Source of the DNA: an uncultured Chloroflexia bacterium
GTDB taxonomy: Bacteria > Chloroflexota > Limnocylindria > Limnocylindrales > CSP1-4
DNA: 64,000 bases
Direction of reading: 5' to 3'
Assembly: GCA_963707215.1 (NCBI GenBank)
Contig: CAVPPB010000003.1
Location: 640,001-704,000, forward strand
In this document: positions 17,410-49,991 of the stretch, in pieces
Numbering within the stretch: the first letter of the stretch is position 1
Layout: each line of letters starts with the position of its first letter
Translations under genes and position numbers: made by a program
The notes under the pieces: model-generated
The model's input: only the letters and a program-made list of their open reading frames with translations
Told to the model about the DNA's origin: nothing
Databases searched by the model: none

Positions 17410-17527
<118 letters not shown>

Positions 17528-17671
17528 TCTCCGTGTGGTGGTACGTGCACGCCGGCAGCGCGCCGGCGCCATGCGATGACGCCGGGGCCGCTCGAACGAT
17601 CTGTCTTCGATCTCGCTGTGGTTCCTGGGTCCGATCCGGACCAGCCGCTGAACCCTGGTCAGCTGCTGAAG

Positions 17672-20741
<3,070 letters not shown>

Positions 20742-20865
20742 CCTCCAGCATCTGACCAGGCGGTCAGCGGCTGATCGAGGTCCGGGATCGTTCTCCTTAG
20801 AACCACTCGGCGAAATCGAAGACAGATATATCGATCGTTTCGATTGCCGATTCACACGTATCCAC

Positions 20866-20878
20866 TTTGAAAGGTGCA
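20866..20878 (-). promoter_or_regulatory. Spacer boxA-like antitermination element
   Basis: TGCACCTTTCAAA in the ITS, matching leader copy TGCACCTTAACA. Confidence 0.6.
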
Positions 20879-21052
20879 GCGTCCCTCGACCGAGGTCGGG
20901 AGACGACTTCGTCCGATAGCGGACGACGGTCCCAGCGTTCTGCTGGCCCATGGCCTCGACATCGAAGGCGAGGACATGGGCCAGGGGATCGCCGGGCAGA
21001 AGATGAACGATTGATGTCTCTTCGTCCGTTCGGGCCGGGTCGCCCAGCAGGG

Positions 21053-21128
21053 TGGTGGAGACGAGGAGACTCGAACTCCTGACCCTCTCCTTGCAAAGGA
21101 GATGCTCTACCAGCTGAGCTACGTCCCC
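21053..21128 (-). tRNA. tRNA-Ala(TGC)
   Basis: GGGGACG acceptor with G3.U70, loop TT-TGC-AA, CCA. Confidence 0.98.
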
Positions 21129-21149
21129 GAGCGACGCGGACGAGGGCGA

Positions 21150-21226
21150 TGGTGGGCGTTTCTGGACTCGAACCAGAGACCTCTGCCTTATCAGGGCAGT
21201 GCTCTAACCAGCTGAGCTAAACGCCC
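21150..21226 (-). tRNA. tRNA-Ile(GAT)
   Basis: GGGCGTT/AACGCCC acceptor, loop CT-GAT-AA, CCA. Confidence 0.98.
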
Positions 21227-21481
21227 GCCGGGCTGCAGCGATGGCGATCGGCATGGCCGACGCCCCGGGGCTGCATCCTTAACCCTTGAAGAGTGGCAGG
21301 AACTCGCGGCAACGATCATTGCGAGCGGGTTACGGTGTCTCGCCAGGTCACCTTCCGGTCTCACCGAGCCCGAAGGCCCGCTGCATCGCTCACCTGGCGG
21401 GAGCGACGAACGACCGGGGTGATCAACCTGGGAGCCATCAACGCCGAGACCTCACCGTTATGGCCTCGACTCGGATCTCCC

Positions 21482-22984
<1,503 letters not shown>

Positions 22985-24476: not shown

Positions 24477-26400
24477 TCACCCGATCTCCCCGACGTCGAC
24501 CAGGTCCTCGCCGAAGATCCGTCGCGCCTCCGACACGAGCGTCGAGCCGTCCTCGTCCACCGGGAGCTCGGCCCATCCGTCGACGTTCGTGGCGACGCAG
24601 CGGACCGTCACCGACCGCCCGAGGAAGTGGCCGATCCCCTCCTCCAGGTTGCCCCGCCGGCGCTCGGCCACGTCCTTCAGGAAGGCCTGCCCCTCCGGGA
24701 AGCCGAGTGTGATTACCGCTCCCTCCACCGCGACGGGCCGACAGGCGCTGATGAGCGGCTTGGTGGGCGGGTGCTGGCTGATGTAGGTGACGATCTCCGG
24801 CCACTGGTCGCGCAGGGCGTCCAGCGTGCCGGCGTCGCTGGACGCCTGCGGCGCGGCCGCCCGATGCGGCTCGGACGTCGGCTTCGGCACCTCCACGAGC
24901 AGGGCCTGGGCCGGCGGGCTGGACCCAGCCGCTCCGACCTCTGGTGGCGCCAGCAACGGCTCGGGCGCGGGCGCGGGCTCGGGCGCGGGCGCGGGCTCAG
25001 CGCGGGCGCGGGCTCTAGCGCGGGCTCTGGCTCTAGCGCGGGCTCTGGCTCTAGCGCGGGCTCTGGCTCTAGCGCGGGCTCTGGCTCTAGCGCGGGCTCT
25101 GGCTCTGGCGCGGTCGCGGGCTCTGGTTCGTGCTCGTGCTCGGGGCTCGGGGCGTCGGGGACGGCCCGCCGGGTAGCCGCCGACCTCGACGGCCTGCGCA
25201 CCGTCCCGCCCTCAGGCCGGCCGCCGAGGTCGGGCGCATCGGGCGTGTCGGGCGTTCCGGATGCGTCGGGCGTGCCGGACCCGAGGGTCGCCGCCGCGAC
25301 GGCCCGAGGATCGACGCGTCGCGACCCCACGGGGGCGGGCTCGAGCGTCACCTCAGAGCTGACCGAGGGGTCCCCGAGGAGGGTCAGTTCGAGCTGGAAG
25401 CGCAGACCGCCGGGACCGGCGCGCGTCGGGTCGACGGAAGCCAGCGCCGATGCCGCGACAGCGAGCCGGCCGAGCGCCGATGGATCGCCGCCGCTGGTGA
25501 GGCGCTCGACGATCGCCGAGCGCAGCTCGTCGACGACCTGATCCAGGAACGAGCGCAGGTCGCGCCCACGATCCTCCAGCTCGGCCAGGATGGCCAACCC
25601 GGCAGCGGCGTCGTGCTCCACGAGCGCCCGCACGAACCCGTCGACTTCGTCCGCCTCGGCGAGGCCCAGGAGCTCGCGGACCTGATCCGCGGTGAGCCGG
25701 CCGTCGCCCGAGGAGAGCAGCTGGTCGAGCATCGATTCCGCGTCGCGCATACCGCCGGAGGCGAGGCGAGCGACCAGCCCGATCGCCTCCTCGTCGGCGT
25801 CTCGGCCGTCGGCAGCGAGGATGGTCCGCAGCTTCCCCTCGATCTCGGCAACCGACAGGCGCCGGAAGTCGAACCTCTGCACGCGCGACAGGACAGCGGG
25901 TCGGATCTGGGAGCTGTCCGTCGTGCAGAACACGAAGACGACGTGGTCGGGTGGTTCCTCGAGCGTCTTGAGGAGCAGGTCCCAGCCTTCCTTGATCCGC
26001 TGGACCTCGTCGACGATGAAGACCTTCCGGACGAAGATCCGACGGGGCCGTGTAGATCCGCGGCAGGAGCTCGCGGATGTCATCGACCCGGTTGTTGGAT
26101 GCGGCATCGAGCTCGATCACGTCGAGCGCCCGACCCTCGCGGATGGCGACGCAGCTGGAGCAACGGTCGCAGGGCTCGCCGCCGTTCGGTTCGCAGGCAG
26201 TTGATGGCCTTGGCGACGATCCGTGCCAGTGACGTCTTGCCGGTCCCGCGGGGCCCGACGAAGAGGAGGGCGTGGGCCAGCCGGCCGGTACGGACGGCGT
26301 TCCGGAGCGTCTCGACGACCGGTGTCTGGCCGACGATCTGGCTGAACGTCTGGGCCCGCCAGCGTCGGTACAACGCCTGGTGCGGGCTGGTGGACGTCAT
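24477..26400 (-). CDS. dnaX: DNA polymerase III subunit gamma/tau (three frameshifts near 26193, 26030 and 24998)
   Basis: [17 protein letters not shown]4 zinc site, [22 protein letters not shown] across three frames; C-terminal domain in a further segment. Confidence 0.93.
25011..25100. repeat. 18-bp tandem repeat x5 (PEPALE) in the dnaX linker
   Basis: GGCTCTAGCGCGGGCTCT at 25011, 25029, 25047, 25065 and 25083; degenerate copies flank it. Confidence 0.93.
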
Positions 26401-26443
26401 CGGCCCTCCGGCTGCGACGACCCGCGGTTCGCGGGATGGCAGT

Positions 26444-26713
26444 ACGCCGTGCACCCACCGTCGATCCGAGCGCCCCCGTGCCCACCGTTCGGACCGGCTC
26501 GGACCAGGCCGATCCGCGGCACCCGACGATCATCGCTTAGTGCTGCTTCCTTCCGGATCTGACACGGTTCGCGAGTCGCCGCTGCGCGGGACCCGGCCCT
26601 CAGCACCGATCGCGAGGGCGGCCTTCGAGGACGGGGACCTCGGGTGGGAGTTCAGCCCTGCTGGAGCGGATTGCAGGTACAGGGCACCGCTAGTTCCCCG
26701 CCTAGCACGGCGT
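26444..26713 (-). ncRNA. ffs: Signal recognition particle RNA, large (Alu-containing) type
   Basis: 5' GCCGTGCTAGGCGGGGAACTAGCGGTGCCCTGTACCTGCAATCCGC (Bacillus scRNA-like), domain IV TCAGATCCGGAAGGAAGCAGCA; upstream of dnaX; extended -10 TGCTATCCT at 26718-26726. Confidence 0.95.
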
Positions 26714-26730: not shown

Positions 26731-26818
26731 TGGCGGAGAGGGCGGGATTCGAACCCGCGATGGGTTGCCCCATACCGCATTTCCAGTGCGGCGCCCTAGG
26801 CCTCTAGGCGACCTCTCC
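26731..26818 (-). tRNA. tRNA-Ser(GGA)
   Basis: GGAGAGG acceptor, loop CT-GGA-AA, long variable arm, G73-CCA. Confidence 0.96.
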
Positions 26819-26865: not shown

Positions 26866-26952
<87 letters not shown>

Positions 26953-26988: not shown

Positions 26989-27434
26989 TCAACCGCCCTG
27001 GACGAGTCCCGCGAGGAGCTCCTCGGCCTCGTCGCGCCGGATCCCGCTGATGACCTTCATCCGGCGAGGGAGACCGTCGTGCTGGGCCAGCTGGATCACG
27101 GTGCCGGCGGCGCCCTCGATCGGATCGGGCACAGCGAAGACCAGCGTCTCGATGTCGCACTCGAGGAGCGCGCCGACGCACATCGGACATGGCTCGTGGG
27201 TGGCGAAGATCGTCGCGCTCTCCCATCCGGTCCGGCCCGAGCTTGCGGGCGGCCTCGCGCAGGGCCATGACGACGGCATGCGCCGTCGGATCGCTCGTCT
27301 CGGCGACCCGCTCGTGCGAGCGGGCCACCATCGCCTCGTCGACGACCGCGACGGCAGCGCTCGGGCGCTCGCCGAGCGACCGGGCGCAACTGGGCCTCCG
27401 CGAGCGCTTCGCCCATGTACAGCTCGTAGTTCAT
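26989..27434 (-). CDS. tadA: TadA-like nucleoside deaminase lacking the catalytic Glu (HAV); two +1 indels near 27386 and 27223
   Basis: Frame-corrected MNYELYMGEALAEAQLARSLGERP...DPTAHAVVMALREAARKLG..ATHEPCPMCVGAL; at the tadA-ffs-dnaX locus; -10 TATCAT 7 nt before ATG. Confidence 0.82.
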
Positions 27435-27585
27435 CGGGCTGATGATACCGGCCCGGGGCGACCGGCCGCGCCACCTCGCCCCCTAGCCCGAGACACGGGA
27501 CCACCGGGCCGTCGTACGATCCAGGGCGGCCGGCATCATCCGGTCCCCGCGACCACGACCCGAGCCCCGGAGGGCCCCGACGACC

Positions 27586-28765
27586 ATGACGACCCAGCGC
27601 CGCATCGGCATCCTCACCGGCGGGGGCGACGTCCCCGGCCTCAACAGCGTCATCAAGAGCGTCGTCTACCGCGCCGGGGAGATGGGCGACGAGGTCGTCG
27701 GCATCCGGCGCGGCTGGAAGGGCCTCACCCACCTGCCGCCGGGCGAGGACCTGGACGGCGAGTGGGTCCGGCCCTTGGACCGGATCAACACCCGGACGAT
27801 CGACCGGACCGGTGGGACGATCCTCCACACCTCCCGGACCAACCCCCGCAAGATGAGCGGGAAGCGGCTGCCTCCACACCTGTCAGCAGAGCGCACCGCC
27901 TCGATGGCCGTGGCCGACGACCTCTACGACCTGACACCGGTCGTCCTCGACAACATCGAGCGCCTGGGGATCACCGACCTGATCGCGATCGGCGGTGATG
28001 ACACGCTCTCGTACTGCGCGAACCCTCGATGCCGCCGGGATCTCGCTCATGGCGGTCCCCAAGACGATGGACAACGATGTCCAGGGCACCGAGTACTGCA
28101 TCGGGTTCTCCTCGGCGATCACCCGGGCCAAGGAGCTCCTGAATCGGCAGCGGACCACTCTCGGCAGTCACGAGCGCATCGGCGTCTTCCGGATCTTCGG
28201 CCGCGATGCCGGCTTCACTGCTCTCTATACGGCATACGTCGCGTCTGCCCGATGCGTCATCCCGGAGGTCCGCTACGACCTGGACCGGCTGGCCGCCCTC
28301 CTGGCCGACGACCATCGGAGCAACCCGAGCCACTACGCCATCGTCATCACCGCCGAGGGCGCGATCTGGGAGGGGGCCAGGATGGTCGACGTCGGCGACG
28401 CGGATGCCTTCGGCCATCGCCACAAGGCGAACGTCGGCGACGCGCTTGCCGCCGAGATCAAGACCCGGACGGGGATCGAGACCCTGGCCTCGGAGCTGAC
28501 CTACGACCTGCGCAGCGGCGAGCCCGACTCGCTCGACTCCATGGTGGCGACGACGTTCGCCAACATCGCCATGGACCTCATCGCCGACGGCCACACCGGC
28601 CTCATGACAGCCGTCCGGGGCGGCCGCTATGCGACCGCTCCCCTGCCCCCCGAGGGCCTCGGACCGCGGACCGTGGACGTCGATGCGCTGTACAACGTGG
28701 AGCGCTTCCGACCCCGCTACGACGGCCGCCTCGGGGACCCGGTCCTGCTGGTCTCCGTGACCTGA
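27586..28765 (+). CDS. pfkA: 6-phosphofructokinase, likely PPi-dependent type (frameshift near 28015)
   Basis: TGGGDVPGLN, GGTILHTSR, GGDDT, PKTMDND. Confidence 0.9.
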
Positions 28766-28792
28766 GCCACGACCAGCCGCGGGCGGCGGCGC

Positions 28793-29668
28793 TCAATCGA
28801 GGCCGGCCAGCTCGCGGAGCGGCCGGGCCACCGCTGACACATCGTCGTCGGCGTGGCCTCGGGCGATGAGCCCCGTCTCGAGTTGCTCGCAGAGCGCCAC
28901 GACCGGCAGGGCGACGCCGACCTCCCGGGCGAGGTCGAGGGCGATGCCGAGGTCCTTGCGGTGGAGGGCGACCCGGAACCCAGGCGGGTACTCGCCGGCG
29001 ATCATCCGCCCCGAGCGGTTGGCCAGGACCCAGCCCTGCGCCGCCCCGCCCGACAGTGCGGTCACGACCTGGCCCGGATCGAGGCCGGCCTTGGTCGCCA
29101 GGACGATGCCCTCGGCGACGCCGAGGTAGACCCCGGCCAGGATGGCCTGGTTGACGGCCTTGGCGGCCTGGCCCGCTCCGACCGAGCCCAGATGGGTAAC
29201 CGTCCGTCCGAGCGTCTCGAGGAGCGGGCGGGCCCGGGCGACATCGGTCTCCAGCCCGCCGACCAGGATCGCCAGGGTCGCATCGCGGGCACCCTCGGGG
29301 CCACCGGTCACGGGGGCATCGACGAAGCCGACGCCGCGCTCCGCCAGCACCCCGGCGATGGCACGGCTGGCAGCTGGTGCGATCGTCGAGCAGTCGACGA
29401 CGAGCGAGCCGGGAGCGACCCCCTCTCCGATGCCTCCGGCGCCGAGGACGACCGCCTCGACGTCCGGGGTGTCGGACACGCAGATGAAGGTGACCTCGGC
29501 GGCGGCGGCGGCCTCGGCCGGGGACGACGCCTCCTTCGCCCCCATGGCGACGAGGGACGCTGCGCGCCCGGGCGTCCGGTTCCACACGGTGACATCGTGA
29601 CCCGCCTTCAGCAGGTTCGCGGCCATGGCCGAGCCCATCGAGCCGAGTCCCACGAATCCGAGTCGCAC
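28793..29668 (-). CDS. NAD(P)-dependent beta-hydroxyacid dehydrogenase (3-hydroxyisobutyrate DH / tartronate semialdehyde reductase family)
   Basis: GFVGLGSMG, DAPVTGG, catalytic KAVNQ, KDL; AAGGAGG SD. Confidence 0.92.
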   Translation of the reverse strand: MRLGFVGLGSMGSAMAANLLKAGHDVTVWNRTPGRAASLVAMGAKEASSPAEAAAAAEVTFICVSDTPDVEAVVLGAGGIGEGVAPGSLVVDCSTIAPAASRAIAGVLAERGVGFVDAPVTGGPEGARDATLAILVGGLETDVARARPLLETLGRTVTHLGSVGAGQAAKAVNQAILAGVYLGVAEGIVLATKAGLDPGQVVTALSGGAAQGWVLANRSGRMIAGEYPPGFRVALHRKDLGIALDLAREVGVALPVVALCEQLETGLIARGHADDDVSAVARPLRELAGLD

Positions 29669-49816: not shown

Positions 49817-49892
49817 TGGCGCGCCCGGCGAGACTCGAACTCACGGCCTTCTGGTCCGCAACCAGATGCTCTATCCACTGAGCTACGGGCGC
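49817..49892 (-). tRNA. tRNA-Arg(GCG)
   Basis: GCGCCCG/CGGGCGC acceptor, anticodon stem TCTGG/CCAGA, loop TT-GCG-GA, A20 in D-loop, G73-CCA. Confidence 0.93.
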
Positions 49893-49899
49893 CCGAGGG

Positions 49900-49991
<92 letters not shown>

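Follow-up and report, generated by a model that had tools for sequence, protein, structure and literature searches.

Inosine at position 34 (I34) of tRNA-Arg is regarded as near-universal in bacteria, where the usual substrate of the adenosine deaminase TadA is tRNA-Arg(ACG), whose anticodon is edited to ICG. In eukaryotes, the paralog Tad3 (ADAT3) lacks the catalytic glutamate (Iyer et al. 2011, PMC3239186); in ADAT3 this residue, the proton shuttle of the family, is replaced by valine while the zinc triad is kept, and the protein is inactive; putting the Glu back into yeast Tad3 failed to restore activity (PMC8216470). For mouse ADAT3, shortening of the C-terminal helix that is needed for binding the anticodon stem-loop, a negative surface and a capped zinc pocket have been described as well (PMC8216470). 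In Mollicutes, tadA has been lost, tRNA-Arg(ACG) has changed to tRNA-Arg(GCG) and tRNA-Arg(UCG) has been gained (Yokobori et al. 2013, PMC3711424), and losses of TadA have been noted in a few other groups (Diwan and Agashe, PMC6063277). Here, we describe a TadA-derived gene with valine at the catalytic position, designated the HAV gene for its His-Ala-Val motif, in a 64,000-nucleotide stretch of DNA (the window; contig CAVPPB010000003.1, positions 640,001 to 704,000) from the genome of an uncultured bacterium of the class Limnocylindria (G000; assembly GCA_963707215.1). The gene is probably a pseudo-deaminase that was made from the lineage's own tadA and kept under selection after a switch of tRNA-Arg. 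Among open-access papers and preprints, searched in full text but without supplements, we saw neither a report of a Glu-less TadA from bacteria nor, Mollicutes and archaea aside, one of tRNA-Arg(GCG).

A TadA homolog without the catalytic glutamate

By three-frame translation, the HAV gene runs on the minus strand from an ATG at 27434-27432 to a TGA at 26991-26989. The codons CAT GCC GTC, at plus-strand coordinates 27280..27272, encode the His-Ala-Val of DPTAHAV where canonical TadA has DPTAHAE; the forward strand at these codons reads GACGGCATG. The first-pass annotation, which was made from the letters of the window, had the coordinates of this motif right and its strand wrong, having assigned the codons to the plus strand. 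Its statements that the Zn ligands are kept and that a full length of about 147 amino acids results once two inserted bases are discounted agree with what we find: His52 and the two cysteines of PCPMC are in place, as is the preceding Glu of the EPC motif, and the open reading frame (ORF) is intact in relatives. The valine is confirmed by GTC in the contigs of all four public runs, where the sole difference across the nine bases of the motif is a synonymous 27278 A>G (CAT>CAC), and by the orthologs, in which the catalytic position is V, I or L in 32/32 sequences as against E in 39/39 canonical TadAs.

The TadA hidden Markov model (HMM) NF008113 is the best NCBIfam match both for the pieces of the gene in the window (49.5 and 27.7 bits) and for intact orthologs (102.1 bits for the ortholog in G001, a genome of the same genus, and 107.3 bits for one from family f4). 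The curated equivalog cut-off of this model is 150 bits; none of 41 genomes exceeds it, and a genuine TadA from family f3, at 147.8 bits, is itself slightly below. Membership in the cytidine deaminase (CDA) superfamily is clear, the C-terminal piece in the window scoring 38.3 bits on PF14437 (cut-off 27) and 28 bits on PF00383 (cut-off 25). Searched against solved structures, a profile of the 32 orthologs matches bacterial TadAs with E values of 1e-38 to 1e-33 (7cph, 1z3a, 2b3j), followed by guanine deaminases (1e-24), ADAT2 (1e-20) and ADAT3 (1e-18). Within G000 (3.26 Mb), the HAV locus is the sole match of the TadA HMM, of the Pfam CDA HMM and of tblastn searches with 15 deaminase sequences of several types; RibD and Cdd, which were not among the tblastn queries, are not found by the Pfam CDA model either.

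Single copy, the type of locus and TadA as the best-matching family suggest descent from the lineage's own tadA. The trees leave the place of the Val clade among TadAs unsettled, and synteny does not tie the gene to the TadA of f3: a tRNA-Ser lies within 3 kb in L053 alone of the f3 loci and, besides, at L070, a canonical TadA locus considered below. Database entries for the Glu-less proteins (P0001, P0003, P0049 and others) carry the name "tRNA(adenine34) deaminase", which is probably a systematic misannotation.

Orthologs were tabulated and their selective constraint was estimated, as had been proposed along with the initial prediction, and HAV prevails among the relatives. In 24 f1 genomes of 24 genera, we found HAV in 21, HAI in one and HPV in one (G007), with no Glu; the ortholog of G020 was not recovered. 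At the HPV locus (L026, G007:C73) the stretch is DPTAHPV and the HN motif still has its Asn; the rest of the gene is masked (X). The best 80 loci recovered from species-representative genomes include 51 without the Glu (47 HAV, 3 HAI, 1 HAL), 48 of them titled Limnocylindria or Chloroflexi and three assigned to other phyla (L082, L106, L114); 27 others have HAE, come from other phyla and are at most 49% identical, and two are not resolved by the motif pattern. The Val-type orthologs are ORFs of about 146-173 amino acids that start with MNYELFM. Thirty-two of them, from f1 and f4, align without stops and share 24 invariant columns, including D48, P49, T50, H52, A53, E80, P81, C82, M84 and C85. 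L020 (G013), which has no start at the expected place, was left out of the alignment and of the rate estimates, and L025, L026 and L056 gave no usable ortholog.

The drift of residues typical of TadA, claimed from the window sequence, is confirmed against the 39 canonical TadAs, the positions considered being those conserved at 95-100% among them. The Asn of HN (position 41) has become D, E, Q or A, and the position is acidic in 28/32 orthologs and Q, A or R in the other four; R93, the Arg after PCxMCAGA, has become D, Q or N; K105, the Lys of DPKxG, is replaced by variable residues; the Asn-His pair N122/H123 is Pro-Arg or Pro-His; and in the C-terminal helix F143/F144 (now A, S, L or P) and R147 have given way to small residues or gaps. 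The TadA signature described by Iyer et al. places an N in strand 2 and a basic residue after strand 4, together with an E and an F in the first C-terminal helix (PMC3239186); here N41, K105 and F143/F144 are replaced, and the helix still has its E (DEAEEL). The Val-clade proteins are shifted to the acidic side as well (net charge -5 to -6 in the median, pI 5.2; canonical TadAs 0 and 7.0) and have conserved stretches of their own, MNYELFM, AMVAR and QLA.

In the tree, the Val-type orthologs are monophyletic on a long stem, 1.1 changes per site, with SH-like approximate likelihood ratio test (SH-aLRT) support of 99, and within the clade f1 and f4 separate as their genomes do. Across 481 pairs, the median ratio of nonsynonymous to synonymous rates (dN/dS, Nei-Gojobori method, NG86) is 0.37, and the closest pairs give about 0.27, compared with 0.39 for the true TadA of f3, although these values are rough and probably overestimates, dS being compressed by the extreme G+C content at third codon positions. 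P0029, a divergent HAV protein of 154 amino acids known from a single 6-kb contig, still resembles TadA at its N-terminus and in its tail and reaches 146 bits with the TadA HMM; in the tree it joins the Limnocylindria clade weakly, at the base, and it may be an early-stage or a third case.

The tRNA-Arg switch and an independent second lineage

In G000, aragorn predicts 52 tRNA genes, of which not one has A34, and those for tRNA-Arg bear the anticodons GCG, UCG, CCG, CCU and UCU; neither aragorn nor a D-arm/anticodon pattern finds tRNA-Arg(ACG) anywhere in this genome. With tRNA-Arg(GCG) present and tRNA-Arg(ACG) absent, the guess of the first-pass annotation that A34 editing had become unnecessary is borne out. 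A second aragorn call with GCG is an odd 90-nt prediction. Outside the window, at G000 C3:1515117-1515192, aragorn also reports a tRNA-Ile with the anticodon UAU, which is unusual in bacteria.

The same pattern matches GCG in 38 of 41 genomes (G000, 24/24 of f1 and 13/16 of f2) and ACG in none. We extended the comparison to 151 Limnocylindria genomes in families f1 to f5, nearly all of those compared in this work being metagenome-assembled genomes and six being flagged as unpublished (G099, G142, G136, G122, G118, G153). In f1, tRNA-Arg(GCG) is matched in 40/45 genomes and tRNA-Arg(ACG) in none, and the codon at the catalytic site begins with GT (Val) in 37 of the 38 genomes in which the motif is matched; in f4, the corresponding counts are 46/50 for GCG and 46/46 for GT. 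Family f3 has ACG in 38/39 matched genomes and GA (Glu) in 38/38. The one f5 genome has GA and no tRNA match. In f2, with genomes of 1.0-1.4 Mb, GCG is matched in 6/6 and the deaminase motif in 0/6, and the TadA HMM has no match in any of 16 f2 genomes (G025-G040); the dead tadA copy seems to have been lost in this streamlined sister family. Thirty-six motif matches were inspected, and all 10 from f4 proved to be Val-type orthologs and nine of 10 from f3 canonical TadAs. G089, the one f3 genome with a GT match and hence a candidate for carrying both forms, was rejected because that match fell by chance in an ORF of another kind.

A second clade without the Glu came to light in a profile search of 1.84 billion representative sequences. 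The best 150 matches comprise 101 HAE, 35 HAV, 10 fragments without the motif, and single cases of HAP, HPI, HGE and HAR. The HPI protein (P0049) led to P0157 (HAV), P0158 (HAI) and P0238 (HAT) among 120 relatives that otherwise carry HAE; P0157 appears in one source under the name of a Candidatus Omnitrophica nucleoside deaminase, and the nearest named relatives of the clade are Planctomycetota. A metagenome scan with these four proteins yielded 80 loci, of which 73 have Glu, six are Glu-less and one lacks the motif, and it gave no close relative of P0049 or P0157, the best match being 59% identical. The six Glu-less loci (L165, L167, L175, L179, L187, L218) have V, V, A, A, C and P at the catalytic site, and every one of them has tRNA-Arg(GCG) directly upstream and tRNA-Ser(GCU) downstream. 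The 73 Glu-bearing loci include 56 with tRNA-Arg(ACG), two with UCG, 15 with no tRNA-Arg in the stretch and none with GCG, and in the related ones among them tRNA-Arg(ACG) stands at the place of GCG. The anticodon stem of the GCG tRNA is the same as that of the ACG tRNA at these related loci, which fits an in-place change of A34 to G34.

A tree of 119 rows, in which 12/32 Limnocylindria rows and 10/27 outgroup rows were used and loci of fewer than 120 residues were left out, places this second Glu-less clade (10 rows, SH-aLRT 91) within Glu-bearing metagenome TadAs and far from the Limnocylindria clade, so that the Glu state changes twice on the tree. dN/dS in the second clade is 0.09-0.24, its catalytic position is variable (V, A, C, P, T or I), and it keeps DPKxGACGS.

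Locus, promoter and frameshifts

Coordinates of the HAV gene and its neighbors are collected in the table below. On the minus strand, the order is HAV gene, tRNA-Ser(CGA), tRNA-Ser(GGA), signal recognition particle (SRP) RNA, dnaX, ybaB, recR and the rRNA operon. The first-pass annotation, which had likened the locus to a Bacillus gene order, had missed the two tRNA-Ser genes between the deaminase homolog and the SRP RNA. These follow the HAV gene in the same order in 32/32 f1 and f4 loci examined. In five relatives, a tRNA-Ser(GCU)-tRNA-Arg(GCG) pair lies 0.06-1.2 kb upstream of the HAV gene; in the window the pair is 22 kb away. A run of EPEPAL/PALEPE repeats is encoded at about 24900-25150 on the minus strand, in the frame of the 24713..26107 ORF and downstream of the dnaX domains.

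Table. Features of the window that bear on the HAV gene; positions are those of the window.
Feature	Position	Strand	Remarks
TadA-derived HAV gene	26989..27434	-	~147 aa after discounting two extra bases
Reading frames of the HAV gene	27434-27387, 27385-27218, 27216-26992; stop 26991-26989	-	
HAV codons	27272..27280	-	His52 (Zn ligand), Ala53 and Val54, the last at the place of the catalytic Glu
PCPMC	27178..27192	-	Two Cys Zn ligands; preceding Glu of EPC motif also kept
Extra base, first frameshift	27386 (approximate, 27378-27387)	.	Absent in G001 and in contigs of runs X1 and X3
Extra base, second frameshift	27217	.	Absent in G001 and in contigs of 4/4 runs
-10-like hexamer TATCAT	27442..27447	-	7 nt upstream of the ATG, the spacing of a leaderless transcript
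tRNA-Ser(CGA)	26867..26952	-	37 nt downstream of the HAV gene
tRNA-Ser(GGA)	26731..26818	-	
Large bacterial SRP RNA (ffs)	26447..26710	-	RF01854, 178 bits
dnaX	24713..26454	-	Three frames; extra single bases near 26034 and 26194 relative to G001
Complete rRNA operon	17410-22984	-	16S, tRNA-Ile(GAU), tRNA-Ala(UGC), 23S, 5S; directly after recR
tRNA-Arg(GCG)	49817..49892	-	Anticodon loop UUGCGGA; stands for the usual TadA substrate tRNA-Arg(ACG)
tRNA-Ser(GCU)	49900-49991		Adjoins tRNA-Arg(GCG)

The hexamer that the first-pass annotation had pointed out upstream of the start codon is present and enriched among orthologs: TAnnnT occurs 6-9 nt before the start in 17/22 f1 and 4/10 f4 orthologs, compared with 54 of 9600 random positions (0.56%), which fits a conserved promoter of a leaderless mRNA. 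Public RNA runs contain 0.11-0.14 of the sampled words, a small share that probably stems from the tRNA and SRP RNA portions of the sequence.

The reading frame of the HAV gene shifts twice in the window, each time by one extra base. By tblastn, the G001 protein matches the window in three frames and without stops (residues 1-16, 17-72 and 72-147; 100, 94.6 and 92.1% identity), and blastn against the G001 locus (L013) shows that the window carries extra bases near 27217 and 27386. A check against sequencing reads, suggested together with the original prediction, was carried out on public-run contigs, which represent a relative, another strain, of about 92% identity and leave 27500-27600 uncovered: it upheld GTC in 4/4 runs, and the extra base at 27217 is missing from 4/4 and the one at 27386, 27387 or 27378 from 2/4. 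dnaX is an essential gene, and because it is broken in the same way nearby, the frameshifts of the HAV gene are read as assembly noise and not as decay; both extra bases are most likely assembly errors, as judged from these alignments. A phosphofructokinase-like ORF at 27586-28869 is likewise split across several frames, and frequent indel errors would also fit the marker completeness of this assembly, 84.8% on only five contigs.

Interpretation and comparison with known systems

We consider it probable that the HAV gene is the lineage's own tadA, turned into a pseudo-enzyme and retained under selection after the tRNA-Arg switch. In the ancestor of f1, f2 and f4, CGN decoding would have moved from tRNA-Arg(ACG), edited to ICG, to tRNA-Arg(GCG) together with UCG and CCG, which would have left A34-to-I editing without a substrate. 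In TadA, Val, Ile or Leu would then have replaced the proton-shuttle Glu, and the enzyme would have given up the HN Asn, the DPKxG Lys, the NH pair and the FF..R tail, while retaining the fold, the three Zn ligands, the frame of about 147 amino acids, a putative promoter of its own that abuts the start codon, its place in a tRNA cluster, and purifying selection. The bacterial pseudo-deaminase that the first-pass annotation had proposed thus stands, with HA[V/I] in 22 of 24 f1 genomes, HPV in one, no Glu, and an ORF that is intact and constrained in relatives.

Because the protein is predicted to be unable to deaminate and its ORF is nevertheless kept open and constrained, a non-catalytic role seems indicated, and the product is most likely a Zn-containing binding or scaffold protein and not a deaminase. 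What it would bind is a matter for more tentative suggestions. The leading guess, though on balance unlikely, is that TadA has a side job on RNA from the tRNA cluster. Slightly better odds, though still clearly short of even, may be given to a scenario in which TadA has a second, editing-independent function. Whenever a bacterial lineage changes tRNA-Arg(ACG) to tRNA-Arg(GCG), the enzyme would be disarmed by losing its Glu, and the protein would persist beside the gene of its former substrate, over hundreds of millions of years, to bind or chaperone tRNA-Arg or pre-tRNA; the pairing is seen twice independently. Anticodon-loop binding in the manner of TadA is unlikely in Limnocylindria because the conserved residues for binding are gone; for the second lineage, with its retained DPKxGACGS, it seems less improbable. 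Since f2 has lost the gene, the role must be dispensable there. Conceivably the Glu was lost because an RNA adenosine deaminase with nothing to do was selected against; TadA of E. coli has been described to edit mRNAs at UACG sites (PMC5630033).

Several observations weigh against a selected pseudo-deaminase. Catalytic death is extrapolated from Glu mutants and from ADAT3, and the dN/dS values on which constraint is argued are rough, as said above. In the present assembly the gene is frameshifted twice, and the extra bases are missing from contigs of the relative of about 92% identity, not of this strain, which leaves a little room for a strain-specific pseudogene; the source genome, moreover, is 84.8% complete by marker count. 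The absence of any homolog from f2 means that the function is dispensable at least in streamlined cells. Covariation within the class may reflect a single event, since kin are no independent cases; counting the second lineage, two evolutionary events stand behind the evidence, not hundreds of genomes. The motif pattern gives chance hits, three of the 36 inspected matches (L056, L065, L068) not being deaminases. Finally, there are exceptions to the pairing of residue and tRNA: the f3 genome G086 has GCG only, G134 has both tRNAs, and the f4 genome G085 holds, beside its Val-type gene, a canonical HAE TadA (L070, G085:C60, on a 7.6-kb contig) that scores 184 bits, over the NF008113 cut-off, in a genome with no tRNA-Arg pattern match. 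Contamination may account for these three, although L070 may also be a real exception.

Other explanations fare worse. If the gene were an ordinary pseudogene decaying after the GCG switch, the two frameshifts would be real, and the absence of the gene from f2 and the missing start and N-terminus of ortholog L020 (G013) would fall into place. Yet the extra bases are absent from G001 and from the run contigs, in the proportions given above; essential dnaX, 1 kb off, has extra bases of the same kind; and in two families 32 orthologs are open with invariant Zn ligands, a conserved promoter box and a dN/dS equal to that of a true TadA. We therefore regard such decay as highly improbable, and "caught in decay", one of the options of the first-pass annotation, finds no support, the frameshifts being most likely assembly errors and the genes of relatives intact. 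Smaller still, to the point of being negligible, is the chance of a sequencing or assembly error at the Val codon itself: the assembly is noisy, but the errors seen in it are single-base indels and not double substitutions, and GTC in four of four runs and V, I or L in all 32 orthologs have already refuted this view.

The protein might, on the other hand, still be an enzyme that carries out a Zn-dependent reaction or deamination on a new substrate with another residue as general base. The invariance of the Zn site and of the DPTAHA loop, the acidic residue at position 41 (Asn in TadA) in most orthologs and the newly conserved MNYELFM, AMVAR and QLA would suit such a shift. The lost Glu, however, is 100% conserved in the 39 canonical TadAs and acts as the family's proton shuttle (PMC8216470), position 41 varies, with Q, A or R in four orthologs, and the old catalytic site of the second lineage varies freely, unlike a re-tooled active site; we accordingly think this quite improbable. 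Since position 41 is not invariant, its acidic residue was rejected as a stand-in for the general base. An ADAT3-like arrangement, in which the dead subunit presents the substrate to an active deaminase in a heterodimer, has in its favor the Glu-to-Val change itself, as described for ADAT3 (PMC8216470), and the presence of a second DPTAHAE gene in 6/45 f1 and 7/50 f4 genomes. Most f1 and f4 genomes nevertheless show no second copy, and the extra HAE copies inspected are guanine-deaminase-like or other paralogs and not TadA, except L070. The partner in an active deaminase pair that the first-pass annotation had envisaged was searched for in G000, 84.8% complete, with HMMs and tblastn, and none was found; there is, besides, no A34 tRNA to edit, and the 147-residue protein has no N-terminal domain of the ADAT3 type. 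A heterodimer of this kind is accordingly very hard to credit, no less so than decay.

A free-living, high-GC class of soil and water decodes CGN in the archaeal way, with G34, U34 and C34. If the gene is, as we favor, a selected pseudo-deaminase, selection also maintains a disarmed TadA in most of this class, a counterpart of ADAT3 in bacteria that arose without duplication. The pairing of Glu loss with tRNA-Arg(GCG) in a second lineage turns an oddity into a testable rule. Under the misannotation noted above, surveys of modification enzymes would count such lineages as I34-positive. TadA is also the scaffold of adenine base editors, and natural Glu-less variants that still fold may inform base-editor engineering.

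Among described systems, bacterial TadA is the closest. The HAV protein shares with it the size, the single domain, the DPTAH and EPCxMC motifs and the Zn ligands, as well as a locus by tRNA-Ser genes and, in several relatives, by tRNA-Arg. It differs in that the Val clade is without the Glu, the HN Asn, the DPKxG Lys, the NH pair and the FF..R tail, is more acidic and reaches 102-107 bits where the cut-off is 150, and in that the substrate, tRNA-Arg(ACG), is absent from the genome. Guanine and guanosine deaminases (1tiy, 7dbf) have the CDA fold and the Zn motifs in common with the HAV protein, and such paralogs occur in a few relatives; they are, however, a weaker match (E 1e-24), keep HAE and have another C-terminus, and none was found in G000.

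With Mollicutes, Limnocylindria share the decoding end state of tRNA-Arg(GCG) plus tRNA-Arg(UCG), although CCG is kept here as well. The ORF is kept and constrained in two Limnocylindria families and lost only in f2, and the genomes are of 2-4 Mb and 70% G+C, in contrast to those of reduced AT-rich parasites. ADAT3/Tad3 resembles the HAV protein in the Glu-to-Val change with the Zn triad, the lost tRNA determinants, the shortened or degenerate C-terminal helix and the acidic character. It is nonetheless distant (E 1e-18 compared with 1e-38 for TadA) and has an N-terminal ferredoxin-like domain that is missing here, where the TadA alignment begins at residue 3-5; an active partner, which G000 (84.8% complete) did not yield, is a further difference. 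Whereas ADAT3 arose after duplication, the Val-type gene appears to have arisen by loss in a single-copy gene.

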